Source of the DNA: an uncultured Thermotogae bacterium
GTDB lineage: Bacteria; Bipolaricaulota; Bipolaricaulia; M55B111
Direction: 5' to 3'
Assembly: GCA_964649445.1 (NCBI GenBank)
Contig: CAZYPS010000005.1
Span: forward strand, 1 to 54,929
DNA: 54,929 nucleotides
Shown here: in pieces, positions 13,754 through 44,468 of the stretch
Numbering within the stretch: the first letter of the stretch is position 1
How the letters are laid out: each line of letters starts with the position of its first letter
Notes under the pieces: model-generated
The model's database searches: none
Told to the model about the DNA's origin: nothing
What the model saw: only the letters and a program-made list of their open reading frames with translations
Translations under genes and position numbers: made by a program

Positions 13754-15205
13754 ATGAATAAATACGATGTGATAGTGATTGGGGCAGGGGTTATTGGCAC
13801 GGGAATAGCACGTGAATTATCCAGATACAGGGTAAGTGTTGGTGTACTGGAAAAGGAACCGGATGTGAGCTGGGGAACGACAAAAGCAAATAGCGGAATA
13901 GTTCACGCAGGTTATGACGCTAAACCCGAAACCATCAAAGCTTCTTTTTCGGCTCCGGGGAACAAAAAGTACAACGAATGGACAGATCCACTTTCCGTAC
14001 CTTTCAAGCGACTTGGATCCTTCGTTTCTACAAAAGACAGGTCTCAGTTGGATAAGCTTCATAGGTTAAAAGAACAAGGTGAAGAGAACGGAGTTGACCA
14101 GCTGGAAATAATTGAGGATAAGGATAGGATTCGAAAGCTGGAACCAAATATCTCTGATGATGTCGAAGCAGTTCTCCATGCACCTACGGCCGGAGTTGTC
14201 GCTCCTTACAAGTTGACCATTGCCCTTTACGAAAATAGCCGTAAAAACGGCGTGGATTTCCACTTTAACTCACCTGTCAAAGGAATAGATACGTCGGATG
14301 AATCCGAAGACGGCTCGGGGTTCAGGGTAAAGACTCAAGACGAAGAGTTCGAGGGAGACTACGTGATAAACGCTGCCGGGCTTTTCTCGGGGAAGATTGC
14401 CGGTATGGTTGGGGATAATAGCTTTTCTATCTTTCCGGCTCGGGGTGAGTATCACCTTCTGGACAGCGAACTACAGGGATTCGTAAACAAGATCAACTTT
14501 CCTTTACCCTCAGAAGAAAGTAAAGGTATCCTGGTAACGCCTGCCGCTGAAGGAAGTATAATTTTTGGCCCAAACCACGAGCCACTAGAGGAACCTTCTC
14601 TCGCGACCACTAAGGAAGGGCTTGACGAAGTATTCCAGGGAGCGGTGGATTTATTCCCGGAAATCGATACAAGCAAAATCGTTACAAACTTTGCCGGGTT
14701 GCGAGCCAAGGCGGGCTCTGATGATTTCGTTATCGGAGAATCGGACGCTGTTGATAACTTTATAAACGTCGGAGGGATTCAGTCCCCGGGTCTCACAGCC
14801 GCCCCGGCAATTTCGGATCACGTAGTAGGTCTGCTTGAGGAAAAGGGGCTGGAACTGGTAACTGATCCCGGCTTCGATCCGAACAGGGAACCTATTCCCC
14901 GGTTCGCAGAGATGAATCCCGACGAGATAGCTGAATATACCGAAAACCTGGACGCGGCAAAGGAAATAGTCTGCCGGTGTGAGGAAGTTACCCGGGCGGA
15001 GATAGAGGAGGCAATAGATCGAGGAGCAGATACGCTGGACGGAATAAAATTCAGGACGAGGTCGAGAATGGGAAGCTGTCAGGGAGGTTTTTGTACTCCC
15101 AAACTCGTAGAAATACTGGCGAAAAAGTTAGGTATTTCTCCCAGAGAAGTAACAAAGAGGGGAGATAATTCCTACTTGCTGGCAGAGGAGACCAAAGAGG
15201 GTTGA
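13754..15205 (+). CDS. FAD-dependent glycerol-3-phosphate dehydrogenase, GlpA/L2HGDH-like, with C-terminal BFD-like [2Fe-2S] domain
   Basis: ATG 13754 after GAGGAG; GAGVIG, TKANSGIVHAG, GIQSPGLTAAPA, and VCRCE...GSCQGGFC cysteine motifs; located in a glpK operon. Confidence 0.85.
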   Translation: MNKYDVIVIGAGVIGTGIARELSRYRVSVGVLEKEPDVSWGTTKANSGIVHAGYDAKPETIKASFSAPGNKKYNEWTDPLSVPFKRLGSFVSTKDRSQLDKLHRLKEQGEENGVDQLEIIEDKDRIRKLEPNISDDVEAVLHAPTAGVVAPYKLTIALYENSRKNGVDFHFNSPVKGIDTSDESEDGSGFRVKTQDEEFEGDYVINAAGLFSGKIAGMVGDNSFSIFPARGEYHLLDSELQGFVNKINFPLPSEESKGILVTPAAEGSIIFGPNHEPLEEPSLATTKEGLDEVFQGAVDLFPEIDTSKIVTNFAGLRAKAGSDDFVIGESDAVDNFINVGGIQSPGLTAAPAISDHVVGLLEEKGLELVTDPGFDPNREPIPRFAEMNPDEIAEYTENLDAAKEIVCRCEEVTRAEIEEAIDRGADTLDGIKFRTRSRMGSCQGGFCTPKLVEILAKKLGISPREVTKRGDNSYLLAEETKEG

Positions 15206-15208
15206 AAA

Positions 15209-16465
15209 ATGACTTCAAAGATTAGTCAAATAAAGAAAGATATAGTTGTAGTTGGTGGGGGGCCGGGTGGAATGGCGGCGGCAATCCGTGGTGCCGAAGA
15301 AGGTGCCGACGTAATGCTTGTGGAACGAGATATCGAGCTGGGTGGCATCCTCAATCAGTGCATTCATAATGGCTTCGGAATAGAGTACTACGGGGAGGAG
15401 CTTACCGGTCCCGAATACGCCGAAAGATTCACTAGCCAGATAAGGGAAAGCGGCATTGACGTTCGTCTCGACAGTTACGTGCTCTCGCTCGAGCCGGACA
15501 AAGTTATTACGCTTATGACCCCTGACGGTATATTCGAGGTTGACGCCGGCGCGGTCGTTCTTGCAACCGGTGCCAGGGAGAGATCTCGCGGTGAGATAAG
15601 GATTCCGGGAGACAGGCCGTCCGGAATAATGCCGGCAGGAACCGCTCAAAAGTTCATTAATAAGAAAGGCTACCTTCCGGGCAAGAAAGCCTTCGTCCTC
15701 GGGTCAGGAGATATCGGATTGATAATATCGCGGAGACTTACCTGGGAGGGTGCCGAGGTTGCGGGTGTTGCTGAAATCATGTCCTACCCGACCGGGTTGA
15801 ACAGGAACGTGGTTCAGTGTCTCCACGATTACGATATCCCCCTTCACCTGAACCATACGGTGACGGAGATTTACGGCAAAGATCGTCTGGAGGGAATTGA
15901 ACTGTCGCGGGTTGATGAAGATTTGAATCCGATAGAGGGCACCGAAAAATATTTTGACGTCGATCTTCTTTTGCTATCGGTCGGTCTGGTACCGGAGAAC
16001 GATTTCTTCAAAGAGGTCGGGGTATCTCTGGACGAACGGACGCAGGGGCCTCTAGTTGGGGAATGGTTTCAGACCGACGTCCCGGGAATTTTTGGTTGTG
16101 GAAATGCCGTACATATTGAAGACTTGGTGGACTGGGTCACCCTGGACGGATTCAGAGCGGGCGAAGGAGCAGTGAAATTTGCCGGAAACGGTGGTCTGTC
16201 TAATCCCGATAAAGACGTTCTGGCAGGGGAAAACGTCAACTACGTGGTGCCTCAGAAGGTCAGCGGGGAAGACCCGTTCCGATTTGCTCTTAGAGTTGAA
16301 GAACCCATGGAAAACGTAGATATTTCGATAAAGGGAACTGATATATCCTTCTTCCAGAAAATAGTTACGCCAGGAGAAATGGAAGTAGAGGAGGTATCGG
16401 AGGACGACCTGGCTGAGATCGAAGATCTGGACGAACTCGAGGTTGAGGTCAAAGGGAGGAATTAA
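15209..16465 (+). CDS. NAD(P)/FAD-dependent oxidoreductase (partner subunit of Firmicutes/Thermococcales-type G3PDH)
   Basis: GGGPGG, GGILNQCIHNGFG, LTGPEYA, ATGARER, GSGDIGLI. Confidence 0.85.
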   Translation: MTSKISQIKKDIVVVGGGPGGMAAAIRGAEEGADVMLVERDIELGGILNQCIHNGFGIEYYGEELTGPEYAERFTSQIRESGIDVRLDSYVLSLEPDKVITLMTPDGIFEVDAGAVVLATGARERSRGEIRIPGDRPSGIMPAGTAQKFINKKGYLPGKKAFVLGSGDIGLIISRRLTWEGAEVAGVAEIMSYPTGLNRNVVQCLHDYDIPLHLNHTVTEIYGKDRLEGIELSRVDEDLNPIEGTEKYFDVDLLLLSVGLVPENDFFKEVGVSLDERTQGPLVGEWFQTDVPGIFGCGNAVHIEDLVDWVTLDGFRAGEGAVKFAGNGGLSNPDKDVLAGENVNYVVPQKVSGEDPFRFALRVEEPMENVDISIKGTDISFFQKIVTPGEMEVEEVSEDDLAEIEDLDELEVEVKGRN

Positions 16466-16836
16466 TGCCGAAGAAAGAATATACCTGCGTCGCTTGTCCA
16501 AAGGGTTGTACTGTCGAAGTGGAATTCGAAGGTGACGAGATTAAGGATATTTCCGGATACAATTGTCTTAAGGGCAAGGAGTACGTGGAGGACGAATTTC
16601 ACGATCCCCGGAGAATTCTTACAACCACAGTAAAGATAAAAAATGCAAAGTATCCTAGAATACCGGTTAGAACGGAAACAGGCGTCCCAAAGAATTCACT
16701 CGATTGTTGTCTGGATGAATTAAATAAGGTCGAGCTGGAAGCTCCAGTGGATATCGGTGATACGGTCATCGAGGACGTATGTTCGACCGGAATTTCCGTA
16801 GTTACCAGCAGATCTCTGGGAGCCCACGATGGCTAG
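16465..16836 (+). CDS. DUF1667 family small Cys-rich (Fe-S/metal-binding) subunit
   Basis: CVACPKGC...GYNC.KG.EY...P.RILTTTV; translationally coupled to the upstream gene. Confidence 0.85.
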   Translation: MPKKEYTCVACPKGCTVEVEFEGDEIKDISGYNCLKGKEYVEDEFHDPRRILTTTVKIKNAKYPRIPVRTETGVPKNSLDCCLDELNKVELEAPVDIGDTVIEDVCSTGISVVTSRSLGAHDG

Positions 16837-16853
16837 ATCTCGGGAGGGTGGAT

Positions 16854-18392
16854 ATGGCCATTGCTGAAAGGCTTTCAGGCCAGGAGTTCGATCTAGCGGT
16901 AATTGGTGGTGGGATTACGGGTGCCGGTGTAGCCCGGGATGCCTCGATGCGGGGACTGGACGTCGTTCTTCTGGAAAAGGATGACTTTGCTCAGGGGACC
17001 AGTAGCCGATCTACAAAACTGGTTCACGGGGGATTGAGATATCTGGAAAATTACGACTTCGGACTGGTTCACGAAGCGCTCAGGGAACGTAAGATATTGT
17101 TAAATATCGCCTCTCATCTAGTTTACCCTTCAAAGTTTTTCTTTCCCGTTTACGAAGAATCCCGCGTGTTTCCTCTTCAGCTCCGAGCCGGTCTCGTACT
17201 TTACGACCTGCTTGCCTGGGGGAGAGGGTTAGGCAGCCACGAGTTCATCAGTCCCGAGGAAACGAGAGAAGTTTTTCCGGGGTTAAAAAAGAATGGCTTG
17301 AGGGCGACTGGAGTATACTACGACTGCCAGATGGATGATTCCAGGTTAGTATTGAGTAACGTTCTGGATTCTGTAGCCCGAGGGGCGGAAGTAGCGAATT
17401 ACGCAAAAGTATCCGACGTCGAGCGTTCAGGGGAGCGGGGAAACTGGACGCTCGAGGTCAGAGATAAGCTAAAGGAAACTCAGTTCTCACTGGAAGCAAA
17501 AAAGGTAGTTAATGCAACCGGACCGTGGTCCGACGATATTGCGGAGAGCTGGAGACAAGAGGGAAGCCGGTTTTTGAGGCCGACAAAAGGAGCTCATCTC
17601 ATATTACCTCCGCTGGGGACAGAGATCGCTGGCTTCTTTCCCTCAATCCATGACGATCGTCTATTTTTTGTCATTCCCTGGGAGAAAAAAACACTGGTAG
17701 GAACGACGGATACGGATTTTTCCGGAAATCCTGATCAGCTGACCGTTAATAGCGAAGAAAGGGAATATTTACTGTCGAACGTAAACCATTACCTGGACGA
17801 AGTGGAATTTGAAGAATCCGACGTGCTGGCAGAATTTGCGGGACTAAGGCCGCTCTATTCCACTGCCAGGGGCGAAGTAGAGGAGTCGAAAGTATCCCGC
17901 GACCACGAAATTTTGGTTGAGAGGGACTCGATTTTTACGATCATCGGGGGCAAATATACGACTTATCGCGCAATGGCGGAAGAAGCCCTGGATTTGATGG
18001 GATCAGCCGGAAAAAGCTCTACCGGCGAGGAAAAGCTTCCGGGAGCGTGGAGAAAAGACCGGGAAAAGCAAAATCTAAAAACGAATATTCTCGAAAATTA
18101 TTCCCTGTCGGAAGCGCAGGTTGAGAACTTGTTGAATAAATACGGGACAAAAGCGAAAGAAGTTCTAGAAAGTTCGGATAAATATCCGGATTTTGACAAA
18201 CCGATAGGGGACTCTGAAGTACCGATAAGGGCTCAGGTTTATTATGCCGCGACCAGCGAATTTGCCCGGACCGCGGAGGACGTGATAAGACGAAGGACCG
18301 GATTGTTTATGCGGGAAGATGAGGAAAAGGATGAAGTTGAACGATTACTGGAAGAAGTTAACGGCAGTGAGGTTGAAGTAAAGAGAGGATAG
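16854..18392 (+). CDS. glpD: Glycerol-3-phosphate dehydrogenase (GlpD type)
   Basis: ATG 16854 after GGAGGG; GGGITGAG, GTSSRSTKLVHGGLRYLE, DDSRL, NATGPW, GTTD, GLRPL, GGKYTTYRAMAE. Confidence 0.92.
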   Translation: MAIAERLSGQEFDLAVIGGGITGAGVARDASMRGLDVVLLEKDDFAQGTSSRSTKLVHGGLRYLENYDFGLVHEALRERKILLNIASHLVYPSKFFFPVYEESRVFPLQLRAGLVLYDLLAWGRGLGSHEFISPEETREVFPGLKKNGLRATGVYYDCQMDDSRLVLSNVLDSVARGAEVANYAKVSDVERSGERGNWTLEVRDKLKETQFSLEAKKVVNATGPWSDDIAESWRQEGSRFLRPTKGAHLILPPLGTEIAGFFPSIHDDRLFFVIPWEKKTLVGTTDTDFSGNPDQLTVNSEEREYLLSNVNHYLDEVEFEESDVLAEFAGLRPLYSTARGEVEESKVSRDHEILVERDSIFTIIGGKYTTYRAMAEEALDLMGSAGKSSTGEEKLPGAWRKDREKQNLKTNILENYSLSEAQVENLLNKYGTKAKEVLESSDKYPDFDKPIGDSEVPIRAQVYYAATSEFARTAEDVIRRRTGLFMREDEEKDEVERLLEEVNGSEVEVKRG

Positions 18393-18434: not shown

Positions 18435-19940
18435 GTGGGCACAGTTAGTACTGAAAAGTTCGTCGGAGCGATCGACCAGGGGACGACAGGAACAAGATTC
18501 ATAATATTTGACCACGAGGGCAAACAGATAAGCTCGGCTTATAGAGAACACGAACAAATCTATCCCGAGCCGGGCTGGGTTGAACACGACCCTCAGGAGA
18601 TCTGGATAAATTTAGGGGTAGTGACTCAGGAAGCCCTGAATAAGGCAGGGTTAAAGTCGAGCGATCTTGTGGCTGTGGGAATTACTAATCAGAGAGAAAC
18701 GGTCTTTACCTGGGATGAAGATGGTGTACCCCTTCATAACGGAATCGTTTGGCAGGACCGCCGGACCGCCGACCGGTGCGAAGAGCTGGAGGGAACCAGC
18801 GTAGAACGGGCAGTTGAAGGAAAAACGGGGCTCCGGCTGGATCCTTATTTTTCCGCCACCAAAATAGAGTGGCTCCTGGAAAACGTGGACGGACTCCAGG
18901 ATGAAATGAAAAGAGGCGAAGTTCACTTTGGTACTATCGAGTCCTGGCTCATCTGGAAGCTAACGGGGGGCGAGGTCTACGTTACGGATCATACAAATGC
19001 ATCGCGTACGATGTTGTTCGATATCAGAGAAAAAGACTGGGACCCGGAACTGCTGGATTCTTTCGGTGTACTGAGAAATTGCCTGCCCGATCCGGTAGAA
19101 AACGTAGAAGTCTACGGAGAGGTTAGTAGTTTGGACTCGTTGAAAGGAGTGCCGATTGGTGCCGCTCTGGGCGACCAACAGGCAGCTCTATTCGGTCAGG
19201 GTTGCTACAGTCCGGGGGAGGGGAAGAACACGTACGGTACAGGGTCTTTCTTGCTGGTAAACATCGGAGACGAACCGGATTTTGGAGATAAATTGCTTAC
19301 CACGATAGGTTTTTCTTCCGAGGGAGAAACGAATTACGCTCTTGAAGGTTCGATTTATTCGACAGGAGCGACGATTCAGTGGCTTAGAGATGGTTTGGAT
19401 ATTGTCGACGAGGCGGCCGAAAGTGAAGGGCTGGCCGAAAGCCTGGATGGAAACGACGGAGTATATTTAGTCCCTGCTTTTGCGGGTCTTGGAGCTCCGC
19501 ACTGGGATTCCAACGCTCGGGGAACCATTGTCGGACTAACGAGAGGAAGCGACGAAAGACACCTGGCGAGAGCGGGCCTGGAATCTATTGCCTATCAGGT
19601 TGAAGACGTGTTGCGGGCAATGAGGGAAGAAACGGACCAGGAACTTGCCGAGCTCAGGGTCGACGGTGGAGCTGCCGAGAACGAATTTCTCTGTCAGTTC
19701 CAGAGCGATATTTCCTCCCTTCCCGTGTTGAGAACGGGAATTTTTGAATCTTCCGCCCTCGGTGCGGCCTACGGAGCCGGATTGGCAGTCGAATTCTGGA
19801 ATGATCTGGAAGAACTGGAAGGGTTGATTGAAGCAAAGAACAACCAGAGATTCCAGCCCAGCATGGAAGAAGATCAAAGAAACAAATTATACGAAAAGTG
19901 GAAAGAGGCAGTGGAAAGGGCAAAAGATTGGGATTTGTGA
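18435..19940 (+). CDS. glpK: Glycerol kinase
   Basis: AIDQGTT, GWVEHDP, GITNQRET, WQDRRT, PYFSATK, TNASRT, GDQQAALFGQ, KNTYGTG, PAFAGLGAPHW. Confidence 0.97.
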   Translation: MGTVSTEKFVGAIDQGTTGTRFIIFDHEGKQISSAYREHEQIYPEPGWVEHDPQEIWINLGVVTQEALNKAGLKSSDLVAVGITNQRETVFTWDEDGVPLHNGIVWQDRRTADRCEELEGTSVERAVEGKTGLRLDPYFSATKIEWLLENVDGLQDEMKRGEVHFGTIESWLIWKLTGGEVYVTDHTNASRTMLFDIREKDWDPELLDSFGVLRNCLPDPVENVEVYGEVSSLDSLKGVPIGAALGDQQAALFGQGCYSPGEGKNTYGTGSFLLVNIGDEPDFGDKLLTTIGFSSEGETNYALEGSIYSTGATIQWLRDGLDIVDEAAESEGLAESLDGNDGVYLVPAFAGLGAPHWDSNARGTIVGLTRGSDERHLARAGLESIAYQVEDVLRAMREETDQELAELRVDGGAAENEFLCQFQSDISSLPVLRTGIFESSALGAAYGAGLAVEFWNDLEELEGLIEAKNNQRFQPSMEEDQRNKLYEKWKEAVERAKDWDL

Positions 19941-20228: not shown

Positions 20229-21344
20229 ATGGGAATTAAGGCATCGAGCCTTTCCAAAAATTACGGGTCGGAGGTAGTTTTAAAAGACCTTGACCTGACG
20301 GTTCCCGATAATAGCTTCACAAGTATCGTAGCTCCAACCGGAGCCGGGAAGACGACTCTGTTACGTATAATGGCCGGAGTGGAAACTCCGACGAGCGGAA
20401 GGGTCTACTACAATGATAGGGACGTGACGGATGTTTCCGTCCAGAACAGAGACATTTCCATGGTCTACCAGCAGTTCATCAATTATCCTTCTCTATCTAT
20501 TTATGAAAACATAGCCTCCCCTTTAAGGGTTTCGGACGAAAGTCTCACGGAAGACGAAATCGACTCCCGAGTTCACGAGGTTGCGGAACTGTTAAATATT
20601 CAGGGACTTCTGGACCACCTTCCCGAAGAGGCCAGTGGGGGAGAGAAGCAACGTACGGCTATTGCTCGGGCTCTGATAAAAAAGCCTCAGTTCACCTTCC
20701 TTGACGAACCCCTGGCAAATCTCGACTACAAGCTGAGAGAAGAGTTGCGGAGTCAATTTCAGGTTATTTTTAAGGAAGAACAAAGTACTTTCATCTACGC
20801 TACTCCAGCTCCGGAAGATGCATTATCAATGTCTACCCATATAGGATTTCTCCACGAAAAGGATATTTTACAGTTCGGGGAGATAGAGGAGGTTTATTAC
20901 CATCCGGATTACGTTGAGGTAGGATCTTATTTGAATGAACCTCCGATGAATATTCTTACTTCGGAACTGGTGGAGAACGAGGAAGGTCAATATTTTCGGG
21001 TCAGTGACGAATTGAGGGTCAAAGCTTTTGATCTGGATAAACTGGAGACCGGCAGGCATTATCTCCTGGGAGTTAGGCCTCAGGACCTGGAGATAGGGGA
21101 ATTTGAAGGAAACGTCACTTTCGAAACTGTAGTTTCGTTTAACGAGATCGTGGGGTCGACAACAACTCTCCATTCCGATCACGAAGGTCAGGAGATAATT
21201 ATTTTTGCTCCCGAACCCAAACACCGACCGGAAGGCGAAAAACTCACTCTGTCTCTGGATCCTCAGAAGCTATACGTGTTTGATGAGGAGACCAGTGAAT
21301 TGGTAACTCAGGGCACCAAAACGACCTTAGGAGAAAAGAAGTGA
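20229..21344 (+). CDS. glpS: Glycerol ABC transporter ATP-binding subunit (Rhizobium GlpS-like)
   Basis: Walker A APTGAGKT, MVYQQFINYP, SGGEKQRTAIARAL, LDEPLANLDYKLREELR. Confidence 0.88.
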   Translation: MGIKASSLSKNYGSEVVLKDLDLTVPDNSFTSIVAPTGAGKTTLLRIMAGVETPTSGRVYYNDRDVTDVSVQNRDISMVYQQFINYPSLSIYENIASPLRVSDESLTEDEIDSRVHEVAELLNIQGLLDHLPEEASGGEKQRTAIARALIKKPQFTFLDEPLANLDYKLREELRSQFQVIFKEEQSTFIYATPAPEDALSMSTHIGFLHEKDILQFGEIEEVYYHPDYVEVGSYLNEPPMNILTSELVENEEGQYFRVSDELRVKAFDLDKLETGRHYLLGVRPQDLEIGEFEGNVTFETVVSFNEIVGSTTTLHSDHEGQEIIIFAPEPKHRPEGEKLTLSLDPQKLYVFDEETSELVTQGTKTTLGEKK

Positions 21345-21350
21345 TATTTT

Positions 21351-26425: not shown

Positions 26426-26456
26426 AGCCCAGCAGGTTTTTTCTGCTGGGCTTTTT
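26426..26456 (+). terminator. Rho-independent terminator
   Basis: AGCCCAGCAG / CTGCTGGGCT stem followed by TTTT. Confidence 0.85.
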
Positions 26457-31797: not shown

Positions 31798-31829
31798 AGA
31801 GTAGGGGGTGTTACTCCCCCTACTCTTTT
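31798..31829 (+). terminator. Intercistronic hairpin/terminator after SBP
   Basis: Perfect 11-bp stem AGAGTAGGGGG / CCCCCTACTCT followed by TTT. Confidence 0.75.
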
Positions 31830-34808: not shown

Positions 34809-34849
34809 AAGGAGGCTGGGTTTTTCGCTAAACCCAGCCTCCTTTTTTT
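34809..34849 (+). terminator. Intercistronic hairpin/terminator after SBP
   Basis: 15-bp stem AAGGAGGCTGGGTTT / AAACCCAGCCTCCTT followed by a T-run. Confidence 0.8.
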
Positions 34850-35679: not shown

Positions 35680-35714
35680 ACCTGGACCGTATTTGGACCG
35701 GCGAGTGATAGACC

Positions 35715-37309: not shown

Positions 37310-37347
37310 AAAGGTTTAAGGAAAATAGAAGTCTCTAAAGGTTAAAT

Positions 37348-38232
37348 ATGAGTCAACTGATTTATCCCGAAAGGAAAGCGAAAGAAAAACTTGGCGAACT
37401 ACTGTCCGGAGGCGTCGTCCACCCGTTGCACAAGAAGGGCTTCCTGATTGATATCGACGGAGTAGTCTGCCGTGGAATGGAACTAATTAAAGGTGCGGAC
37501 GAAGTAATCAGAAAGTTGAGGGAAAACGAGAAAAGGACGGTATTTGTTTCCAACAATTCGACGAAGTCCCCTCGACTGTATAAGGGGAAGATGTCGGAGC
37601 TTGGGATAGAAGTTGAGGAAAAAGATCTGGTTCTGGCCACTGTTGTTGCGGCCGACCATATCAGGGAGAAAACCCCGAATGCCAGTGTGTACGTGGTCGG
37701 GGATAAAGGGCTTGGGGAGACAATGGAAGAATACGGGCTGGAAACCACGGAAGTGCCCGGGGAGTCGGATTACGTGGTTGTCGGAAATCCGTTTAGGCGA
37801 GACGGAAGACTAAGAGACGGTAACGACGGTAAAATAACAGGGGCAGTAAGGGCTATACTGGAGAACGACGCGAAGTTTATTGCCGTCAACGTCGATACGA
37901 TATTTCCCACAGAAAATGGACCCGTTCCCGCTACAGGGGCTATCGTTAAGGCAATTGCTCATTCGACCGGTCATTCGCCCGATATAGTTGCCGGTAAACC
38001 GGAGAAGCCCATGATTTCGCTGGCCCTGGAAAGGTTAAACCTAAAGCCGGAAGAGTGCGTTCTGATAGGGGATTCCCGGGTAGATATGGTGGCAGCCCAG
38101 GAGTATGGGTTAACGTCGGTTTTTGTAAGGACGGGCTCTGCTGAGGAACGGGACCTCGAAGAGGAAGGCGTCTTTCCCGACTTTGCTTTGGATTCGATCA
38201 GGGATCTACTCGTGGTTGAAAATTCCAGTTGA
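37348..38232 (+). CDS. HAD-IIA (NagD-like) phosphatase
   Basis: DIDGV motif I, SNNS, GKP, IGD..D. Confidence 0.88.
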   Translation: MSQLIYPERKAKEKLGELLSGGVVHPLHKKGFLIDIDGVVCRGMELIKGADEVIRKLRENEKRTVFVSNNSTKSPRLYKGKMSELGIEVEEKDLVLATVVAADHIREKTPNASVYVVGDKGLGETMEEYGLETTEVPGESDYVVVGNPFRRDGRLRDGNDGKITGAVRAILENDAKFIAVNVDTIFPTENGPVPATGAIVKAIAHSTGHSPDIVAGKPEKPMISLALERLNLKPEECVLIGDSRVDMVAAQEYGLTSVFVRTGSAEERDLEEEGVFPDFALDSIRDLLVVENSS

Positions 38233-38327: not shown

Positions 38328-39413
38328 ATGCAAATTAACTCAAAAACAGTAGGATACTTCGTTCAAAATAGGAAAAGATGGGATGATGCGTATTTTGGTA
38401 GAGGTAATGTAGAAGGAACGCCGGCGTACGCTCAGCTCCACGAATACGCGATGGTCCAATCGCCACTGAGCGGTGAGGAGTTTTACACGGACGGGGAGGA
38501 ACTGGTTAATTGGGAAGCCAGAACTGCTCACGAACTTCGCCTCGATATACCCGATATTACGTTCGATTGCTATAATATCGAAGTCGAAGCCCTGGGGGGT
38601 GAGGTTAGATATTTTGACGATAAAGCCCCAGGGTTGATAGACCCTCCAGTGGAAAATAAGAGTGAATTACTCCGCCTTGATCCTCCCGACCCATACAGGG
38701 ATGGAAGGATGCCTTTTGTCTTTGAAATAGTTGAGGAGTACGAGAATTTGTTCGGCTGTTTCCCGAGATTAAACGTTACTGCCCCGTTTACCCTGGCGGC
38801 GAAACTGCGAGGGGTCCAGAACTTTTTGATGGACATAGTGCGGGATAGTAGTTTCGTTAAAGACTTATTGAGCTTTGTAACCGAGGAAGTGCTTGAGCCG
38901 TATATTAATGCCATTAAAGCGGTCAGAAGCTACGAAGGAGAAGTAATTGCCGCTGATGCCATCGCTTCCCCACCGAACCTGGACCTGGATTTATTGGAAG
39001 AGCTGGCCCTACAACCTCTTTTACAACTAAAGAAGTCCTGCGGGGAAGACGTAGTTATCCTGAACTGGTGGGGGGAAAGCCATGTCAAAGATCCCAATAG
39101 GTTGATGGAATTAAAAACCCGTGCCAGTTCCGGAAAGGTGTTAGAGGGCCAGGACCCCGATGTTAACGAACTCGGTCCTGAAAGATACCGGGATTTCGCC
39201 TTATCACGTGATACGTCCCTTATACTGGGAGTTGGGACGGATATGATGATGATGGGAGATCCGACTTCAGTAAAAGAAAGAGTGAAAAGATATTTAAAGG
39301 TCGGAGAAGATATGAAAGGTAGGTTCTTGCTTTATTTTACGAACCTCGTCGGAGATACGCCCCTGGAAAATATTCAAGCTGCCATGGGAGTTTTGAAGGA
39401 ATCTGGCAATTGA
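38328..39413 (+). CDS. Uroporphyrinogen decarboxylase/MtaA-CmuA fold protein of unknown function
   Basis: D.YNIE.EALG, DP..DGRMP, APFTLA..LRG...FLMD, D..ASP, TPLENI.A. It lacks the UroD MRQAGR motif and the MtaA Zn ligands (HxC...C). Confidence 0.8.
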   Translation: MQINSKTVGYFVQNRKRWDDAYFGRGNVEGTPAYAQLHEYAMVQSPLSGEEFYTDGEELVNWEARTAHELRLDIPDITFDCYNIEVEALGGEVRYFDDKAPGLIDPPVENKSELLRLDPPDPYRDGRMPFVFEIVEEYENLFGCFPRLNVTAPFTLAAKLRGVQNFLMDIVRDSSFVKDLLSFVTEEVLEPYINAIKAVRSYEGEVIAADAIASPPNLDLDLLEELALQPLLQLKKSCGEDVVILNWWGESHVKDPNRLMELKTRASSGKVLEGQDPDVNELGPERYRDFALSRDTSLILGVGTDMMMMGDPTSVKERVKRYLKVGEDMKGRFLLYFTNLVGDTPLENIQAAMGVLKESGN

Positions 39414-39468
39414 GCCCAAGGTTGGTAGAATTTCACATTTTTTCCTGCTGGACGTGAAGGAGGCACAA

Positions 39469-40257
39469 ATGATTAAAGGGTTTATATTCGATTTGGATGG
39501 GACTGTCTACTTGAGTGACAAACTTATTCCGGGTGTAGAAGAGTTAGTGAATGGGTTAAAGAAAAATGATTACAGAATGGTCTACCTTTCTAACAAACCC
39601 TTACAGAGAAGATCCACTTACGCGAAAAAGTTAACGGAACTTGGAATTACTACCCCTGAGGATCAGGTGGTAAACTCTTCTTACGTCATGGCTAACCATA
39701 TTTCAAAAGTTGCTCCCGGGGCGAGTGTTTACGTGATAGGGGAAAAGCCGTTAATTGACGAACTGGAAGAGGCTGGATTAAGGATAACAGAGGATCCCGA
39801 GCAAATAGATTATGTCGTAGCAAGTTTCGATCGGGATTTTCACTATGACAAGCTCCAGATAGCTTACGAAGCCATCAAGCACGGGGCGAATTTTGTCGCA
39901 ACAAACCCGGATCGCACCTGTCCGGTTGAGGGAGGAGAGGTACCTGACGCGGCAGGGATGATTGGAGCAATCGAAGGAGTAACTGGAAAACAGGTAGAGA
40001 AAATTGCCGGAAAGCCCTCCGAGTTAATGGTGGAGGCGGCACTTGATAGGCTGGAAATTAAACCCGAAGAGTGTCTTTTAGTGGGGGACAGATTGGAAAC
40101 CGATATTAAGATGGGAAATAACAGTGGAATAAGCACGGCTTTAGTCCTATCCGGGGTAACTGATCTTGAGGATCTGGAAAAGTCCTCCGTTAAACCGACG
40201 TATGTATTGGAAGATTTATCCCAGTTGCCGGAGAAAGTGGAGCTGGTTGATATTTAG
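39469..40257 (+). CDS. HAD-IIA (NagD-like) phosphatase
   Basis: ATG 39469 after AAGGAGG; FDLDGT, LSN, ATNPD, GKPS, VGDRLETDI, LVLSGVT. Confidence 0.92.
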   Translation: MIKGFIFDLDGTVYLSDKLIPGVEELVNGLKKNDYRMVYLSNKPLQRRSTYAKKLTELGITTPEDQVVNSSYVMANHISKVAPGASVYVIGEKPLIDELEEAGLRITEDPEQIDYVVASFDRDFHYDKLQIAYEAIKHGANFVATNPDRTCPVEGGEVPDAAGMIGAIEGVTGKQVEKIAGKPSELMVEAALDRLEIKPEECLLVGDRLETDIKMGNNSGISTALVLSGVTDLEDLEKSSVKPTYVLEDLSQLPEKVELVDI

Positions 40258-40349
40258 CAACGATGATATTTTCTTTTTATGAGTCCGATTGAATACCTTG
40301 CCTTGCTAGTAAGGTTTATTGCTTGTGATATTAACTAACTTTTCCCTTC

Positions 40350-40530
40350 AGTCAATTTCCCGCCCGCCCGGGCGGAGCTTGTAGAAAACCTCTTTACAAT
40401 TAACGGCTGCATACTTCAAAAACGCGAGACCCGGCAGACAATCGAGCCCACCTCTGAGCTTTGCGCCGGATAAGAAATATCATCTCACATAACAACCAGC
40501 AGTTCTTAAGAGATGTATCCTCGATTGACT
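40350..40530 (+). mobile_element. Possible IS200/IS605-superfamily (IscB/omega-RNA-like) left-end remnant
   Basis: GTCAATTTCCCGCCCGCCCGGGCGGAGCTTG resembles, from memory, the GTCAA..CCC-hairpin-GGAGCTTG start of IscB/HEARO elements. AGTCAAT (40350) is complementary to ATTGACT (40524). No transposase or nuclease ORF is present. Confidence 0.35.
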
Positions 40531-40564
40531 ACTGGTAGTTGGTAAAATGACGTGAAGATGTACC

Positions 40565-41509
40565 CTAGATCGCCATATCGAGACCTTTATAAAGCAAGAA
40601 TGCGAAAAGAGCAGCTGCCGTAGGAGTAGCCACCCAGCCAATAACGATTTCGATTATCTTTCTAAAACTTACCGTGCTTGTACCTTTCACGAGTCCGACG
40701 CCGATTATTGCTCCTACTATGGCCTGAGAGGTGGAGACTGGGATACCAATTATGGAGAAAAAATGGACTGCAACAGCTGCAGCTGTCTGTGCTGCTACGG
40801 CAGAAAGGGGGCCGAGAGTAGTTATCCCTTTACCAACCGTTTCCGTGACCCGTCGTCCGTAAGTAAGCACACCAATAGAAAGAGAAATTCCACCCAGTAA
40901 GGCCAGCCAAGTCTGGTTTATTCCCAGTACAGTTAGGGGACCGACGGAGTTTCCAACGTCATTCGATCCGAGAGAAAACGCCACGTATGCTCCCGAAAGA
41001 ATTACCATATAGCTGAGTAGTTTGTCCCAGAAGGTCACCATTTTTACCCGTTTAAGGAAGAATGAAAGTATGTGGTAAAGAGTAAAACTCATAATTGCCG
41101 TGAGCGGGGGAGATATTACCCAGACTTCCCCTATGGTAATGACCTTAGAGAAATTTACGGCGTTTCCCATAGAAAGACCTGCACCTACTACCCCGCCCAC
41201 TATAGCCTGAGAGGTAGAGACGGGAACTTTGAAGAACGTTGCAAAAGTAACAAAGACGCCGGCGGAAAGCATGGCGGTGAGAACGCCCGTCATGTTGAGC
41301 GGGTTAGGAACTACCCCTTCCCCGATCGTTTTCATTACGTTATGGCTCTGAAGGAGAGCTCCCAGTACTACAAAGATCGCCACGACATAGACCATCTTGC
41401 GGTAAGAAATAAGGCCGGAGCCTACCGGGGTTCCGATACAATTGGCGGTGTCATTGGCTCCAATGTTCCATCCTACGTAAAAGCCCGCGACGATCAATAA
41501 AACTATCAT
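40565..41509 (-). CDS. Inorganic phosphate transporter, PiT family
   Basis: IGANDTAN and LGSNDVGN signature repeats; two PVSTSQAIVG motifs. Confidence 0.92.
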   Translation of the reverse strand: MIVLLIVAGFYVGWNIGANDTANCIGTPVGSGLISYRKMVYVVAIFVVLGALLQSHNVMKTIGEGVVPNPLNMTGVLTAMLSAGVFVTFATFFKVPVSTSQAIVGGVVGAGLSMGNAVNFSKVITIGEVWVISPPLTAIMSFTLYHILSFFLKRVKMVTFWDKLLSYMVILSGAYVAFSLGSNDVGNSVGPLTVLGINQTWLALLGGISLSIGVLTYGRRVTETVGKGITTLGPLSAVAAQTAAAVAVHFFSIIGIPVSTSQAIVGAIIGVGLVKGTSTVSFRKIIEIVIGWVATPTAAALFAFLLYKGLDMAI

Positions 41510-41539
41510 TCCTAATAATCAGGGGCCTGGAACATTGTG

Positions 41540-42247
41540 TTATCGGTTCGTCATAATCCTTATGAAGTTCGCGGCATTTTCAATATGATCCAGAATATTG
41601 TTGGCCTTGAGGGCAACCTGGATTAAGTGATACTTTTCTATTCCTTCCATGTTTTCGGAATTATAAATGGATTTTATCGCTTTTCTCGTTGTCTTATCGG
41701 CGCTGTGTTCCAGGTTGTTTATCTCTTCGATGGATTCTCGGACTTGGTCCAGTTTGCCCTCACCATCGCTGGTACCTTTTATAACCGCCCCGGCATTTAT
41801 GACCAGCTTGCTGTATTCTGAGACTGACTTTTCAAGAATATCGGCCAGACTATTCAGAGAATCCTTGTACTGATCAGGCAATTTATCCGTGAGATTTAAC
41901 AAAGGTAGTAATTCGGCAACATCCTGAGAGTTGTCGGCTATTTCATCCTGGTGCCATAGTAACGATAGCAGGTCCGATCTGGCAACGGGCATTAAAAGAT
42001 CGCTTCGAGGTAACTCCTTCCGAATTTCCTGTTTTTCCTGATCGGCTTCGAATTCGTAATTTGACACCATTTCTCCCTGTATTTCTTTTCCCTGAGTGTA
42101 ATCATGTAATTCTTCTACTAAAGCTTCGACGGTTGCCTCTACTTTTTCGGCGTGTTTAGATAACTGTTCAAATGGCGAAGTCTCAGTTAGATATCCGGCG
42201 AAGGAACGTTTGAAATTTTTAATCTTCTTAAAACTGAAAAACGACAT
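41540..42247 (-). CDS. DUF47 (PhoU-like) phosphate transport regulator
   Basis: E.EAD..K.EIR, PVARSDLL, QD.IAD, LEH.AD, D.IENAA; co-oriented with PiT. Confidence 0.88.
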   Translation of the reverse strand: MSFFSFKKIKNFKRSFAGYLTETSPFEQLSKHAEKVEATVEALVEELHDYTQGKEIQGEMVSNYEFEADQEKQEIRKELPRSDLLMPVARSDLLSLLWHQDEIADNSQDVAELLPLLNLTDKLPDQYKDSLNSLADILEKSVSEYSKLVINAGAVIKGTSDGEGKLDQVRESIEEINNLEHSADKTTRKAIKSIYNSENMEGIEKYHLIQVALKANNILDHIENAANFIRIMTNR

Positions 42248-42694: not shown

Positions 42695-43567
42695 ATGAAT
42701 GAGAGCAAAAATAGAAATTTGTTAAATATTGCCCACAGAGGCGCCCGGAGTATAGCACCGGAGAATACACTGGTAGCTGGTAGAAAGGCTTACAGGGAAG
42801 GAGCGGATTTTTGGGAGTTTGACGTTCGACTTACCGGAGATGGAGAACTGATAGTTTTCCACGACGAAACTCTAACACGAACTACTGATGTTTGTGAAGT
42901 CTTTCCTGATAGAGATTATTACAGGGTAAGTAATTTCGATTTTTCCGAAATAAGACGGCTTGATGCGGGCAGCTGGTTTGGGGAATCGGATCCGTTTGGA
43001 GAAGTAAGCCGTGGTGCCATTTCTGGATCCGATTTGAAGTTGTATTCGGGTGTAGAAGTACCTTCGCTTCGGGAGGCTCTGGAGCTAACGAAGTACCTTG
43101 ATTGGAGGGCAAATATTGAACTTAAGTTTTCTAACGGGCGGGAGGCAAAAGTATTGGAAGAGCGAACCACCAGCGTTTTGCGGCAACTCGTTGATTTGGC
43201 TGAGGAATTGGGGGTGCTGAACAGGGTCGTAGTATCATCTTTCAGCCATGGAGCTATCGGGAAGCTAAAAAACTTTCACTCTGCAATAAAAGGTGCTTTG
43301 CTGGTTAAAGAGCCTTTGGCCAGACCTATAGAGTACCTGGAAGAATATAACGCCAAGATCCTTAATTTGAAGGAATCCGCGGTTCAGACGGAGGCGGGGC
43401 TCAGCAATATTAAGGAAATAGGTGGCGCTAGTCCCAAATACGCGGTAAATTTGTGGACCGTCAACAAAAAAGAAAAAATGAAGGAGTACCTCTTGAATCC
43501 GTTTATAGATGGGTTAGTTACTGATTATCCCGGTAGACTGTCGGAGGTTATTTCAGGGTCAGCTTAG
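42695..43567 (+). CDS. ugpQ: Cytoplasmic glycerophosphodiester phosphodiesterase
   Basis: IAHRGA...APENT, EFDV.LT.DG.L..FHD..L.RTT, NIELK, SSF, WTVN, G.VTDYP; no signal peptide. Confidence 0.92.
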   Translation: MNESKNRNLLNIAHRGARSIAPENTLVAGRKAYREGADFWEFDVRLTGDGELIVFHDETLTRTTDVCEVFPDRDYYRVSNFDFSEIRRLDAGSWFGESDPFGEVSRGAISGSDLKLYSGVEVPSLREALELTKYLDWRANIELKFSNGREAKVLEERTTSVLRQLVDLAEELGVLNRVVVSSFSHGAIGKLKNFHSAIKGALLVKEPLARPIEYLEEYNAKILNLKESAVQTEAGLSNIKEIGGASPKYAVNLWTVNKKEKMKEYLLNPFIDGLVTDYPGRLSEVISGSA

Positions 43568-43627
43568 CTGGTTAAGAATTATTGCTTGGAATAAGCACCA
43601 TTAATTTGAATGACTTCTTTGGTTTTC

Positions 43628-43661
43628 TTGACAATACCCTTTTATCTTCCTATGTTATAGT
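43628..43661 (+). promoter_or_regulatory. Promoter of DeoR regulator (probably leaderless transcript)
   Basis: TTGACA 43628-43633; TATGTT at 17 nt spacing and extended -10 TGTTATAGT 43653-43661; no SD before ATG 43668. Confidence 0.55.
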
Positions 43662-43667
43662 TTGATT

Positions 43668-44468
43668 ATGTCTGACATTCTTGCAGAAGAAAGAAGAAGA
43701 AAAATCTTAGAGGAGTTAGAGGCTGAAGGAACTGTTAAGACCGCCCAGCTGGCAAAACTATTTTCCGTTTCGGAAGTGACAATCCGCCGAGACCTCGAGG
43801 TTCTGAAGGAAGAAGGGAAATTGAAGAAGGTCCACGGTGGGGCAGTAGCGAACGAAAAGAACTTTCAGTCTTCCTATCACGGCGATACAATCACATTTGA
43901 GCCATCTTTTCAGGAAAAAGCTGAAGTAAATAAACAGGAAAAGGAAAAGATAGGAGAAAAAGCCGTTTCATTGATTAAAGACGGGAGTTCTGTCTTCATT
44001 GGTACGGGCACTACTACGATGCAGATCGTAAAAAATATTGGAGATAGGGCTGCCCTAACTGTGGTAACGAATTCTCTGAATCACGGGCTGGAGCTGGCGA
44101 GAACTCCCGAGGTAGAGGTATTAATAACCGGCGGGCAATTGCGAAAGAATACTTCCGCTTTAGTCGGCCCAATTGCAAAACGATCATTCGAGGAAATATA
44201 TGTCGATACATTATTCCTCGGGGTAAACGGAATCTCCATTGATCATGGTTATACGGTACCGTCGCTGAGAGAGGCGGACATGGCACGAAGTATTATGGGT
44301 ATGGCCGATGAAGTAATTATAGTGGCTGATTTTTCAAAGTTCGGTAAAGTAAGCCATGCAAAGGTGGCGGAAATTGACGGGGCGCATAGGATCATAACTG
44401 ACGATCAGGTCGACGATTCTTACAGGGAGGCACTTTCCGATATTGGGGTAGATCTGCTGGTGGCTTAA
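43668..44468 (+). CDS. DeoR/GlpR family transcriptional regulator
   Basis: ERR..IL, LA..FSVSEVTIRRDL..L, VHGGA, GTGTTT, VVTNS, ADFSKFG. Confidence 0.93.
   Translation: MSDILAEERRRKILEELEAEGTVKTAQLAKLFSVSEVTIRRDLEVLKEEGKLKKVHGGAVANEKNFQSSYHGDTITFEPSFQEKAEVNKQEKEKIGEKAVSLIKDGSSVFIGTGTTTMQIVKNIGDRAALTVVTNSLNHGLELARTPEVEVLITGGQLRKNTSALVGPIAKRSFEEIYVDTLFLGVNGISIDHGYTVPSLREADMARSIMGMADEVIIVADFSKFGKVSHAKVAEIDGAHRIITDDQVDDSYREALSDIGVDLLVA

Follow-up and report, generated by a model that had tools for sequence, protein, structure and literature searches.

The DNA analyzed here (the window) is a contig of 54,929 nt, designated C5, of a metagenome-assembled genome (MAG; code G000; 2.26 Mb, 218 contigs, 89.6% complete), and its region from 13739 to 44468 carries a gene island for the uptake and breakdown of glycerol, glycerol phosphates, and glycerophosphodiesters. 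The explanation that we cautiously favor is that this island is the only locus for glycerol-backbone acquisition and catabolism of a salt-adapted Candidatus Bipolaricaulota member, assembled stepwise at one slot. The island is a mosaic of a genus-conserved core, namely FngABC, glycerol kinase (GlpK), a GlpVSTPQ-type ATP-binding cassette (ABC) importer, and a DeoR-family regulator, and of a variable slot between the substrate-binding protein (SBP) gene of that importer and deoR. In this MAG, the slot contains two UgpBAE importers, a PhnD-type importer, an HAD-IIA/URO-D-like/HAD-IIA string, PiT-DUF47, and a glycerophosphodiesterase (GDPD). Profile scans (Pfam on 42 open reading frames (ORFs) and NCBIfam on 30 ORFs of the window) found every gene that an initial annotation of this DNA had placed within 13754-44468; the FngB and FngC partners, DUF2160, and the URO-D-like gene between the two HAD genes were absent from its list. 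In tblastn searches of the island proteins against the whole 2.26-Mb MAG, the sole copies of the GlpK ortholog, FngA, FngC, GlpD, the 610-aa SBP, DUF2160, PhnD, DUF47, and GDPD were found in the island, which also holds both UgpB copies (2/2), two of three HAD-IIA copies, and one of two PiT copies. Because these single-copy genes were found nowhere else by tblastn, the concentration of glycerol genes in the island is non-trivial; the MAG is, however, incomplete. Five GlpK paralogs suggested by FGGY_N scores were rejected, as the eight other FGGY matches in the MAG are 25-29% identical to GlpK and the one that was scanned scores as xylulokinase-like. In the following, G numbers denote genomes of relatives (with a contig number after the colon), L numbers homologous loci, and X1, X2, and X4 metagenome runs.

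The core is composed of the following features.

13664..13714, + strand: promoter/operator-like block of fngA (TTGAAA, 17 nt, TATGCT, then TTTCGAGTTTGTTTAG)
13739..15205, + strand: A subunit of an FngA-type glycerol-3-phosphate (G3P) oxidoreductase, 488 aa, FAD DAO plus BFD [2Fe-2S] (PF01266 E 3.9e-67, PF04324 E 1.1e-13)
15209..16465, + strand: FngB-type FAD/NAD(P)-binding subunit (PF07992, Pyr_redox_2, E 7.2e-32)
16465..16836, + strand: FngC-type DUF1667 subunit (PF07892 E 2e-28)
16779..18392, + strand: GlpD-type G3P dehydrogenase (NF008899 407 bits, cut-off 360)
18435..19940, + strand: glycerol kinase GlpK (NF000756 688.7 bits, cut-off 498; TIGR01311 661.7 bits, cut-off 590)
20229..22454, + strand: two MalK/UgpC-like ATPases of the glycerol ABC importer (20229-21344 and 21351-22454; ABC_tran plus TOBE_2), conserved with the importer in relatives
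22497..24154, + strand: two permeases of the glycerol ABC importer (22497-23360 and 23357-24154; BPD_transp_1), 90-94% identical in relatives
24157..24432, + strand: DUF2160 small membrane protein (PF09928 E 8.7e-27)
24555..26387, + strand: GlpV-type SBP of 610 aa with a signal peptide (weak SBP_bac_1 match, 24 bits, cut-off 26)
43662..44468, + strand: DeoR/GlpR-family regulator (HTH_DeoR plus DeoRC; AgaR 222 bits, cut-off 260; haloarchaeal GlpR 200 bits, cut-off 300)

The trio at 13739-16836 matches the FngABC architecture exactly, and an electron-bifurcating activity, from G3P plus reduced ferredoxin to NAD+, is predicted for it. According to the accessible text of PMC13689815, FngA is a DAO plus BFD protein of ~500 aa, FngB is an FAD/NAD(P) protein, and FngC is marked by DUF1667. 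The intergenic gaps of 3 and 0 nt fall within this definition, in which B and C lie no more than three genes and 300 bp from A. What the initial annotation had taken for the first of two G3P dehydrogenases is a three-gene FngABC-type unit. In the same source, as far as its text is available, an electron-bifurcating, ferredoxin- and NAD-dependent G3P oxidoreductase was purified from P. furiosus, in which the operon also includes GDPD and GlpK. The island shares with this operon (PF2003-PF2007, encoding GDPD, GlpK, FngA, FngB, and FngC; Biochemistry 2026) the three-subunit architecture beside GlpK and a GDPD in the locus. In contrast to the P. furiosus operon, the island adds four ABC importers, GlpD, HAD-IIA, URO-D-like, and PiT-DUF47, and its enzyme is a predicted one. 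FngB orthologs that are 80-85% identical occupy the same position in seven relatives' contigs. The probable ATG of fngA is at 13754. The listed glpD ORF overlaps fngC, and translation more likely starts from an internal Met at 16854; among the seven relatives' contigs covering the site, only G007:C163 (71% identity) has glpD between FngC and GlpK. The block upstream of fngA is almost invariant in all six aligned orthologous upstream regions and contains a promoter-like site at 13667-13695, and a similar TTGACA..TTGTTTTnTTGTTA layout precedes both the glycerol ABC genes and deoR.

The complete importer string (two ATPases, two permeases, DUF2160, and an SBP of ~600 aa) extends over 20229-26387 and occurs likewise in five relatives' contigs. 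The same components are shared by the GlpVSTPQ systems of R. pomeroyi, Rhodobacterales, and Rhizobia; the available part of PMC10130141 describes R. pomeroyi glpVSTPQ (SPO0608-0612) as verified for glycerol, with a mutant that is defective on glycerol. Homologs of the 610-aa SBP in Halomonas, Rhodobacterales, Desulfobacterales, and others are 51-67% identical, and with 51-55% identity to the Rhodobacterales/Halomonas homologs it is a candidate ortholog of GlpV. The importer family comprises at least 600 loci. In 80 loci of other phyla, DUF2160 adjoins the SBP in 35, and the SBP loci are flanked by GlpD in 44, GlpK in 26, and DeoR in 26.

The slot between the SBP gene and deoR contains the following genes.

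26746..28053, + strand: UgpB1, glycerol-phosphate binding protein (E. coli UgpB 4aq4 E 2.9e-73; NF008211 293.2 bits, under cut-off 411)
28159..29872, + strand: permeases UgpA1 (28159-29043) and UgpE1 (28985-29872) (NF007852 255.6 bits and NF008210 239.6 bits, both under cut-off)
30470..31786, + strand: UgpB2, second glycerol-phosphate binding protein (9lff E 9.4e-95; NF008211 356.4 bits, under cut-off 411)
31875..33652, + strand: permeases UgpA2 (31875-32807) and UgpE2 (32804-33652) (NF007852 274.8 bits, NF008210 279.2 bits)
33880..34782, + strand: PhnD-family binding protein (PF12974 E 2.9e-70)
34882..37309, + strand: PhnC ATPase (34882-35679) and two PhnE permeases (35715-36497 and 36494-37309) (TIGR02315 334 bits, cut-off 266; TIGR01097 293 and 288 bits, cut-off 217)
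37348..38232, + strand: HAD1, cytoplasmic HAD-IIA phosphatase with no signal peptide (TIGR01460 131.5 bits, cut-off 100.15)
38328..39413, + strand: URO-D-fold protein (PF01208 73 bits; model pLDDT 93.9)
39454..40257, + strand: HAD2, the conserved HAD-IIA phosphatase (TIGR01460 142.6 bits, cut-off 100.15; 1vjr E 1.4e-53)
40565..41509, - strand: PiT-family (PHO4) anion permease (PF01384 E 1.4e-73, 248 bits)
41540..42247, - strand: DUF47 (PhoU_div) partner of PiT (PF01865 E 8.9e-29, 101 bits), with a conserved promoter block upstream in relatives
42695..43567, + strand: cytoplasmic, UgpQ-like GDPD (PF03009 E 2.5e-34; HRG and E..D..HD motifs; no signal peptide)

Comparison with four same-genus contigs and one sister-genus contig revealed a conserved string of FakA-DegV, DUF1295, FngA, FngB, FngC, GlpK, two ATPases, two permeases, DUF2160, and the 610-aa SBP, with 71-94% amino acid identity. 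The synteny expected in related MAGs holds for the core, and accessory subsets recur, but the 31-kb arrangement is specific to this MAG. In G001, the SBP is followed by PiT-DUF47. Ugp1, HAD2, and PiT-DUF47 are present in G009:C112; Ugp1, HAD2, DUF47, and GDPD in G002:C77; GlpK, Ugp1, HAD2, and DUF47, without the glycerol importer, in G008:C134; a third Ugp type, HAD2, and PiT in G008:C120; GlpK, HAD2, and PiT-DUF47, with HAD2 directly behind GlpK, in G007:C163; and HAD2, PiT-DUF47, GDPD, and DeoR in G010:C27. G015 shows the HAD2/PiT-DUF47 linkage beside GDPD-DeoR, and G003 and G006 combine the third Ugp type with GDPD, G006 having DeoR and GntR as well. GDPD adjoins DeoR in G010, G008:C168, G006, and G015. 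Of all accessory features, the convergent placement of HAD2 and PiT-DUF47 varies least. HAD2 is always the last gene of glp or ugp strings (nine relatives' contigs), and in seven of the nine contigs with HAD2 it stands behind Ugp1 or GlpK without a URO-D gene. This recurrence of HAD-IIA and PiT-DUF47 behind glp/ugp in nine relatives' contigs supports the original proposal of a linked glycerol, glycerol-phosphate, and glycerophosphodiester system. G008:C56 corresponds to the window from Ugp2 to PiT, with HAD2/PiT behind URO-D, except for one clean deletion of 33651-37584. This 3.9-kb deletion (L104, 3802-4427), with a junction overlap of 8 nt, took out PhnDCEE together with codons 1-79 of HAD1, and the remnant of HAD1 is frameshifted. 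Because the remnant stays in G008:C56, the Phn-HAD1 arrangement is older than the deletion.

UgpB1 and UgpB2 are 42% identical to each other, and each retains all nine ligand contacts of the marine UgpB (Y64, E88, S143, W188, W191, S266, G303, Y342, and R393), as shown by alignment with 9lff (whose chain numbering exceeds that of the paper by 20). According to the accessible text of PMC12718374 (PNAS 2025; 9lff, 9lf9), Y64, S143, S266, and Y342 contact the phosphate, E88, G303, and R393 contact the glycerol, and the clamp of Trp188 and Trp191 distinguishes binders of G3P and sn-glycerol-1-phosphate (G1P) from the M. tuberculosis glycerophosphocholine binder. The dissociation constants of the Phaeobacter UgpB given there are 2.36 uM for G1P and 0.80 uM for G3P. 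UgpA1/UgpE1 are 93-98% identical in G008:C134, G009:C112, and G002:C77, and UgpA2/UgpE2 are 97% identical in G008:C56. No ATPase gene (UgpC) is located inside 26746-29872 or 30470-33652; MalK-like ATPases of the MAG are encoded at 20229-22454 and on contigs C31, C75, and C67.

A PhnT-family importer stands alongside the Ugp importers, as GpxB does functionally in Phaeobacter. In contrast to GpxB, the PhnD-type protein of the island keeps five of the nine contacts (Y138, S168, S170, H199, and R223, with T111A, G112F, N169T, and T247A changed) and scores closer to PtxB; its solved matches are PtxB 5lv1 (E 2.2e-41), marine PhnD 5jvb (E 9.5e-39), and, in third place, GpxB 9lf9 (E 4.9e-32). The column of the aromatic cap (PtxB Tyr208, marine PhnD Tyr206) is occupied by Ala, and the columns of the E. 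coli PhnD acidic pair Glu177/Asp205 (equivalence according to the available text of PMC12718374) by Arg and Ala, which are fixed in all six members of the protein's own clade. This clade is tight, with 79-84% identity, and identity then falls to 39% or less. Because of the residues at the contact, cap, and acidic-pair columns, the PhnD-type protein falls outside the GpxB, phosphite, and aminoethylphosphonate types, and the most inferable ligand would be a phosph(on)ate with a larger, hydroxylated or anionic tail. Neither a 2-hydroxyacid-dehydrogenase (PtxD-like) domain nor a C-P lyase or phosphonatase family was found among the 42 scanned ORFs, to which the search was confined. The Phn module was found in 0/20 relatives by DNA search, and a pattern search for loci with a single PhnD-type sequence gave 80 pattern matches and no relative. 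Pieces of the module that are 93-96% identical are present in run X4 of another study.

HAD1 and HAD2 both consist of Hydrolase_6 and Hydrolase_like domains and are intact and cytoplasmic, with DIDG/DLDG nucleophile motifs; HAD1 has the motifs DIDG, SN, GKP, and GDxxxD. The solved structure 4i9f, 'Glycerol 3-phosphate phosphatase', was matched by HAD2 with E 3.8e-29 (ranked 19th) and by HAD1 with E 1.7e-17 (ranked 21st), and HAD2 scores 191 bits against TIGR01452, just below the cut-off of 201.95. This enzyme, Rv1692, is described in the available text of PMC12722247 as the last step of polar-head recycling following Ugp uptake in M. tuberculosis, and the island shares the logic of that system (UgpABCE, a glycerophosphodiesterase, and Rv1692), namely Ugp import, diester cleavage, and the release of glycerol and phosphate by HAD-IIA. 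In contrast to the island, which unites GlpK, PiT, and URO-D-like, the genes are unclustered in that description, and Rv1692 (361 aa) is distant from HAD2. PiT and DUF47 form a standard carrier pair, in which DUF47 precedes the PHO4 permease, for a phosphate or sulfate anion.

The URO-D-like protein has MtaA 4ay7 as its best PDB match (Foldseek; TM 0.76/0.81, E 1.2e-13), followed by UroD. It scores 48 bits against NF004889 (cut-off 244), and its ESM Atlas matches are only 'URO-D family' clusters. MtaA-type methyltransferases carry the Zn-ligand motif His-x-Cys...Cys. No His-x-Cys is present in the sequence of the island protein, and no invariant Cys or His was found among 17 aligned members; the invariant residues of the family are D80, Y82, E85, R127, D276, and D278. 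The family is small, with 42 cluster representatives and 245 confirmed genome loci. In the best 80 of these 245 loci, the neighbors within 8 kb in other phyla include an SBP of a Ugp-like importer (12/80), HAD-IIA (8/80), MttB (13/80), and PiT (7/80), and no B12-binding protein was found among 144 neighbor ORFs of 24 URO-D loci. The HAD-IIA/URO-D-like pair, which is conserved across several phyla, marks an uncharacterized enzyme family.

This distribution also bears on a different account, in which the pair acts on another imported phosphoester (a phospho-alcohol or a methylated head group) or HAD2 is only a relief valve for toxic G3P. HAD-IIA and URO-D-like adjoin without glp genes in other phyla (L133, and L136, L161, and L170 with GHMP kinase and DHH phosphoesterase), and the family stands beside MttB at the loci counted above. 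Among solved structures, those closest to both HADs are unspecific enzymes of the p-nitrophenyl-phosphatase/NagD type (1vjr, 3qgm), not the G3P phosphatase, a point that also counts against the favored explanation. The mouse glycerol-3-phosphate phosphatase 7po7 is among the structural-sequence matches of HAD2, and a relief-valve role against G3P build-up is known for the mouse enzyme. Against this account stand the seven of nine HAD2 contigs in which HAD2 is placed behind Ugp1 or GlpK without URO-D, the lack of B12-binding neighbors, and the lack of the MtaA-type Zn-ligand motif, so that we regard it as clearly unlikely. A role of the URO-D-like protein as a corrinoid methyltransferase is made less likely by the latter two results, but MttB at 13/80 loci and P0025, a 627-aa member of the family fused to B12-binding_2 and B12-binding domains in a CmuA-like manner, speak for it. 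This fusion hints that at least part of the family may work with a corrinoid. The three loci L136, L161, and L170 belong to Chloroflexota-type MAGs (titled Anaerolineales/Ardenticatenales) and encode the string GHMP kinase, DHH phosphoesterase, HAD-IIA, and URO-D-like, an uncharacterized phosphoester pathway with two genes common to the island; their HAD-IIA is 54-56% identical to HAD2. G000 contains eight MttB-family genes (non-Pyl, trimethylamine-methyltransferase-like), at 52318-53784 and on seven other contigs. The copy in the window is located between a Cys/Met-metabolism enzyme dependent on pyridoxal phosphate and PanB. Upstream of it lie genes for a GntR regulator and an Opp-type ABC importer, both of which are syntenic in G015.

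The favored explanation of the island as a functional glycerol locus gains from its recurrence in another phylum. In L135 (titled Halanaerobiales) and L185 (titled Bacillota), GlpK, (UgpA-E-B), URO-D-like, DUF47, PiT, UgpB-A-E, HAD-IIA, GDPD, and FngA-like are arranged on one strand with short gaps, and UgpB2 is 60-61% identical to the UgpB of these two loci. That the same gene set lies clustered on a single strand in these two MAGs, which belong to a different phylum, supports the functional linkage that had initially been proposed. As a control, 80 loci around more distant UgpB homologs of other lineages were inspected, and GDPD was found in 27 and an ATPase in 35, HAD-IIA in one, and PiT and URO-D in none. 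The sole HAD-IIA case is L200, a Firmicutes MAG with GlpK, HAD-IIA (52% identity), GlpD, UgpB, and GDPD. Around the glycerol SBP in the 80 loci of other phyla mentioned above, UgpB, HAD-IIA, URO-D, and PiT were each found in 0/80 and GDPD in 1/80. Because the control counts for HAD-IIA, PiT, and URO-D are near zero, their joint presence is not the background of either transporter, and Ugp, HAD-IIA, PiT-DUF47, GDPD, GlpK, and FngA form a recurring, lineage-restricted combination. The GC content is lower over the Ugp2 module (30001-34000, 0.42) and GDPD-DeoR (42001-44000, 0.41) than in the adjoining modules (0.47-0.50). Transfer between co-resident halophilic anaerobes would fit, as the high UgpB2 identity and the GC content of Ugp2 agree with it.

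The same GC dips suggest separate origins of the modules, and together with the at least eight different arrangements among relatives and the clean loss of Phn and the HAD1 5' end in G008:C56 they might be taken to mean that no functional unit exists beyond the FngABC-GlpK-glycerol-ABC-DeoR core and that the remainder consists of transport genes that accumulated by chance in a plastic part of a fragmentary MAG. However, the same families come together again, differently ordered, in another phylum, HAD-IIA, PiT, and URO-D are nearly absent beside unrelated UgpB genes, and the arrangement of the island is seen in a second sample (X2), which makes chance accretion very unlikely.

For the island as a glycerol locus, the following pathway is proposed. 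By homology, glycerol would enter via the GlpVSTPQ-type ABC importer and be phosphorylated by GlpK, glycerol phosphates would enter via the two UgpBAE importers carrying the full G3P/G1P contact set, and imported glycerophosphodiesters would be split by the cytoplasmic GDPD. The sn-G3P would be oxidized to dihydroxyacetone phosphate by the FngABC-type ferredoxin/NAD-linked enzyme and GlpD. HAD2, with HAD1 as its paralog, may dephosphorylate surplus G3P or those glycerol phosphates that are not substrates of the stereospecific dehydrogenases (sn-G1P, perhaps glycerol-2-phosphate (G2P)), and the resulting glycerol could re-enter as sn-G3P through GlpK. The surplus phosphate may exit via PiT and its DUF47 partner, the URO-D-like enzyme may act at some further step of the HAD2 pathway, and the PhnD-type importer may take up another phosph(on)ate ester whose tail exceeds H or CH3 in size. 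In E. coli, the G3P/Pi antiporter GlpT avoids phosphate build-up, and Ugp is inhibited by internal phosphate. PiT-DUF47 is proposed as a phosphate outlet because ABC import of esters brings in one phosphate per carbon skeleton and exports none, and its presence on one strand with the L135/L185 genes fits. The island shares UgpB-A-E, a cytoplasmic GDPD, GlpK, GlpD, and a DeoR-type GlpR with the E. coli system (ugpBAECQ plus glpT/glpQ/glpD/glpFK). In contrast to E. coli, it is without UgpC in cis, GlpT, and GlpF, and has FngABC instead of GlpABC, an ABC importer for glycerol, HAD-IIA, PiT-DUF47, and URO-D-like.

GlpD and FngA are stereospecific for sn-G3P, and the route via phosphatase and GlpK costs one ATP. 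A funnel from G1P via glycerol to G3P is plausible on these gene families, because the reference homolog of the importers does not discriminate between G1P and G3P, the G3P dehydrogenases are stereospecific, and phosphatase plus GlpK would convert either enantiomer or G2P. According to the accessible text of PMC12718374, biosynthetic G3P dehydrogenases are stereospecific as well. The reading of the initial annotation thus holds in part. Its stereo-agnostic funnel is in keeping with the contacts retained by UgpB1/2 and with an HAD-IIA family that includes the solved G3P phosphatase 4i9f, but the PhnD-type protein, with five of nine GpxB contacts, does not support it. Lipid debris of archaeal origin had been included among the substrates. 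As is chemically well established, the ether-linked (diether) backbones of archaea cannot be released by GDPD, and 'archaeal origin' can therefore mean only head groups or free G1P. The phosphatase genes point to a testable candidate route by which bacteria could exploit the mirror-image form of glycerol phosphate found in archaeal lipids. Tentatively, and with a probability that we consider rather low, the string of non-stereoselective importers (Ugp, perhaps PhnD-type), HAD-IIA, GlpK, and PiT-DUF47 could be the missing intracellular bacterial route for archaeal-type sn-G1P, in which G1P would be converted to achiral glycerol and then to sn-G3P while phosphate is let out. The URO-D-like protein would then be a new head-group enzyme, and the route would, without GpsA, also feed the cell's own membrane backbone from lipid debris. 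The words 'phosphatase' and 'glycerol kinase' occur 0 times in the main text of PMC12718374, as far as it is available, which gives no intracellular G1P route, and none of the literature titles and abstracts among the matches listed addresses a bacterial route of G1P catabolism.

In addition to the broad phosphatase relatives of the HADs, several points weigh against the favored explanation. The roles of HAD1, HAD2, URO-D-like, the PhnD-type protein, and UgpB1/2 are putative beyond the family level. The best NCBIfam match of PiT is the sulfate permease CysP (160 bits, under the cut-off of 400). GlpK and a G3P phosphatase in one string, as in G007:C163, are futile unless the phosphatase spares sn-G3P or is regulated. 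Relatives hold subsets only, and G005, in which deoR directly follows the glycerol SBP gene, has none of the accessory modules at this site. The premise that G1P can enter metabolism solely via dephosphorylation is not watertight, since a distant G1P-dehydrogenase-like gene is located elsewhere in the genome (G000:C61:9274-10596, L197). The best NCBIfam match of its product, a 440-aa Fe-ADH_2 protein, is NAD(P)-dependent glycerol-1-phosphate dehydrogenase (195 bits, under the cut-off of 413), and this protein could oxidize G1P directly. The gene lies in a sugar cluster that also encodes an ABC importer of the ribose type, a SorC/DeoR regulator, and an FGGY kinase resembling xylulokinase, an arrangement reminiscent of AraM in the B. 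subtilis ara operon.

A further point of this kind is that the modules form transcription units of their own; the island is interrupted by strong hairpins and by gaps of 230-600 nt, and one gene pair lies on the opposite strand. All four binding-protein genes are followed within 27-40 nt by a strong hairpin with a T-run.

26426..26452, + strand: hairpin and T-run after the SBP gene (11 pairs, 7 GC)
28087..28123, + strand: hairpin and T-run after ugpB1 (15 pairs, 8 GC)
31798..31826, + strand: hairpin and T-run after ugpB2 (11 pairs, 7 GC)
34809..34844, + strand: hairpin and T-run after phnD (15 pairs, 8 GC)

A hairpin behind a binding-protein gene is the usual way to over-express it relative to the membrane parts. 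The core-promoter block was not matched before ugpB1, ugpB2, phnD, or GDPD. A search for inverted repeats in nine intergenic regions yielded no consistent candidate, the two blocks conserved at fngA matched elsewhere with up to three mismatches three times and once (0.75 and 0.13 expected), with no relevant match, and regular-expression scans for the core TTGTTTT..GTTA gave four matches, one of them at a promoter (19992). These searches lend no support to a GlpR operator shared across all modules. The co-regulation that had been anticipated across the modules could not be demonstrated for the accessory ones, as the operator common to the core promoters was not found before them. Among the sequencing runs listed for the stretch, none that holds 33800-43600 is an RNA run.

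These features would also suit a phosphorus-acquisition set of the Pho-regulon kind, in which the right half of the island (Ugp twice, Phn, HAD, PiT-DUF47, and GDPD) landed at a recombination-prone slot next to the glycerol operon and the HADs release phosphate from imported esters rather than serving carbon supply or stereo-inversion. The modules have their own hairpins and share no detected operator with the glycerol core, the slot is variable and contains dispersed repeats, the PhnD-type protein is overall closest to phosphite binders, and ugp and phn are Pho-regulon genes in E. coli. However, L135 and L185 place Ugp, HAD-IIA, PiT-DUF47, and GDPD between GlpK and FngA on one strand, HAD2 is located directly behind GlpK in G007:C163, and the 42 scanned ORFs of the window include no gene for Pst, PhoU, PhoB/R, or alkaline phosphatase. 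PiT-type carriers are of low affinity and typical of phosphate sufficiency, and the PhnD-type protein is without the Tyr cap that restricts PtxB to phosphite. A phosphorus set is, on these grounds, of fairly low probability.

As a glycerol locus, the island would probably also be a source of the G3P backbone for the cell's own lipids, because canonical GpsA was not found. When G000 and 40 relatives were screened for canonical GpsA with PF01210 (E 1e-38 or better), G000 gave no such match and two of the 15 genomes of the genus gave one, in contrast to three of four other genomes of the family and 19 of 22 from the rest of the class; this absence rests on MAGs that are 70-90% complete, which also weighs against the favored explanation. 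PlsY and FabF-like genes are present in G000. If the absence of GpsA is real, the organism may depend on scavenged glycerol and head groups for its own lipid backbone. The component families are known except URO-D-like, and FngABC-GlpK-GDPD, GlpVSTPQ, UgpBAE-GDPD, and recycling by Ugp with Rv1692 have all been described. What is new is that these families are combined in a single locus, that the combination recurs in a second phylum as a string including PiT-DUF47, HAD-IIA, and URO-D-like, and that it fits the question of imported G1P. Transporters for G1P were described late in 2025 (December), and the island bears on the fate of the imported G1P. Together with its Halanaerobiales/Bacillota counterpart, it names candidates that can be assayed, namely HAD-IIA, GlpK, PiT-DUF47, and URO-D-like, and it shows how glycerol and lipid head groups might sustain an FngABC-type anaerobe in hypersaline sediment.

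The arrangement of the modules is supported by independent assemblies. In X2, a second sample from the same study, Logan contigs bridge every inter-module junction across 25500-45400 (SBP610/UgpB1, Ugp1/Ugp2, Ugp2/Phn/HAD1/URO-D, URO-D/HAD2/PiT, DUF47/GDPD, and GDPD/DeoR/GntR), with 0-1 differences from the window per listed contig except for one 339-nt record with three; the small holes between these contigs fall within genes. In X1, possibly the source sample, a single contig of 12,094 nt covers 26443-38536. An assembly chimera is ruled out by the junction-bridging contigs of X2. The runs containing the stretch are labeled as sediment or hypersaline-lake metagenomes, and the proteins are strongly acidic (D+E 12-19% vs. 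K+R 7-13% in 12 soluble island proteins). No Rfam match was found across the window at gathering thresholds.

The convergent spacer between HAD2 and PiT contains a repeat.

40347..40535, no strand assigned: two adjoining short dispersed repeat units

This repeat has dozens of 72-90% copies in same-genus MAGs and five partial copies in G000, and its two sub-units are also found separately; in run X4 it shows a depth peak of 131 and loose ends. A further short intergenic repeat at 26450-26549 has many 72-90% copies on other same-genus contigs. Both are possibly of the kind of miniature inverted-repeat transposable elements or repetitive extragenic palindromes, and they are located exactly in the variable slot. 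On the other side of the core, a FakA-DegV fusion (fatty-acid kinase A plus binding subunit) and a DUF1295 membrane protein (10691-13277) are conserved left neighbors of fngA, with 65-83% identity in G002, G005, G008, and G015. The location of FakA-DegV, a gene for the salvage of exogenous fatty acids, beside the glycerol locus is consistent with lipid scavenging.

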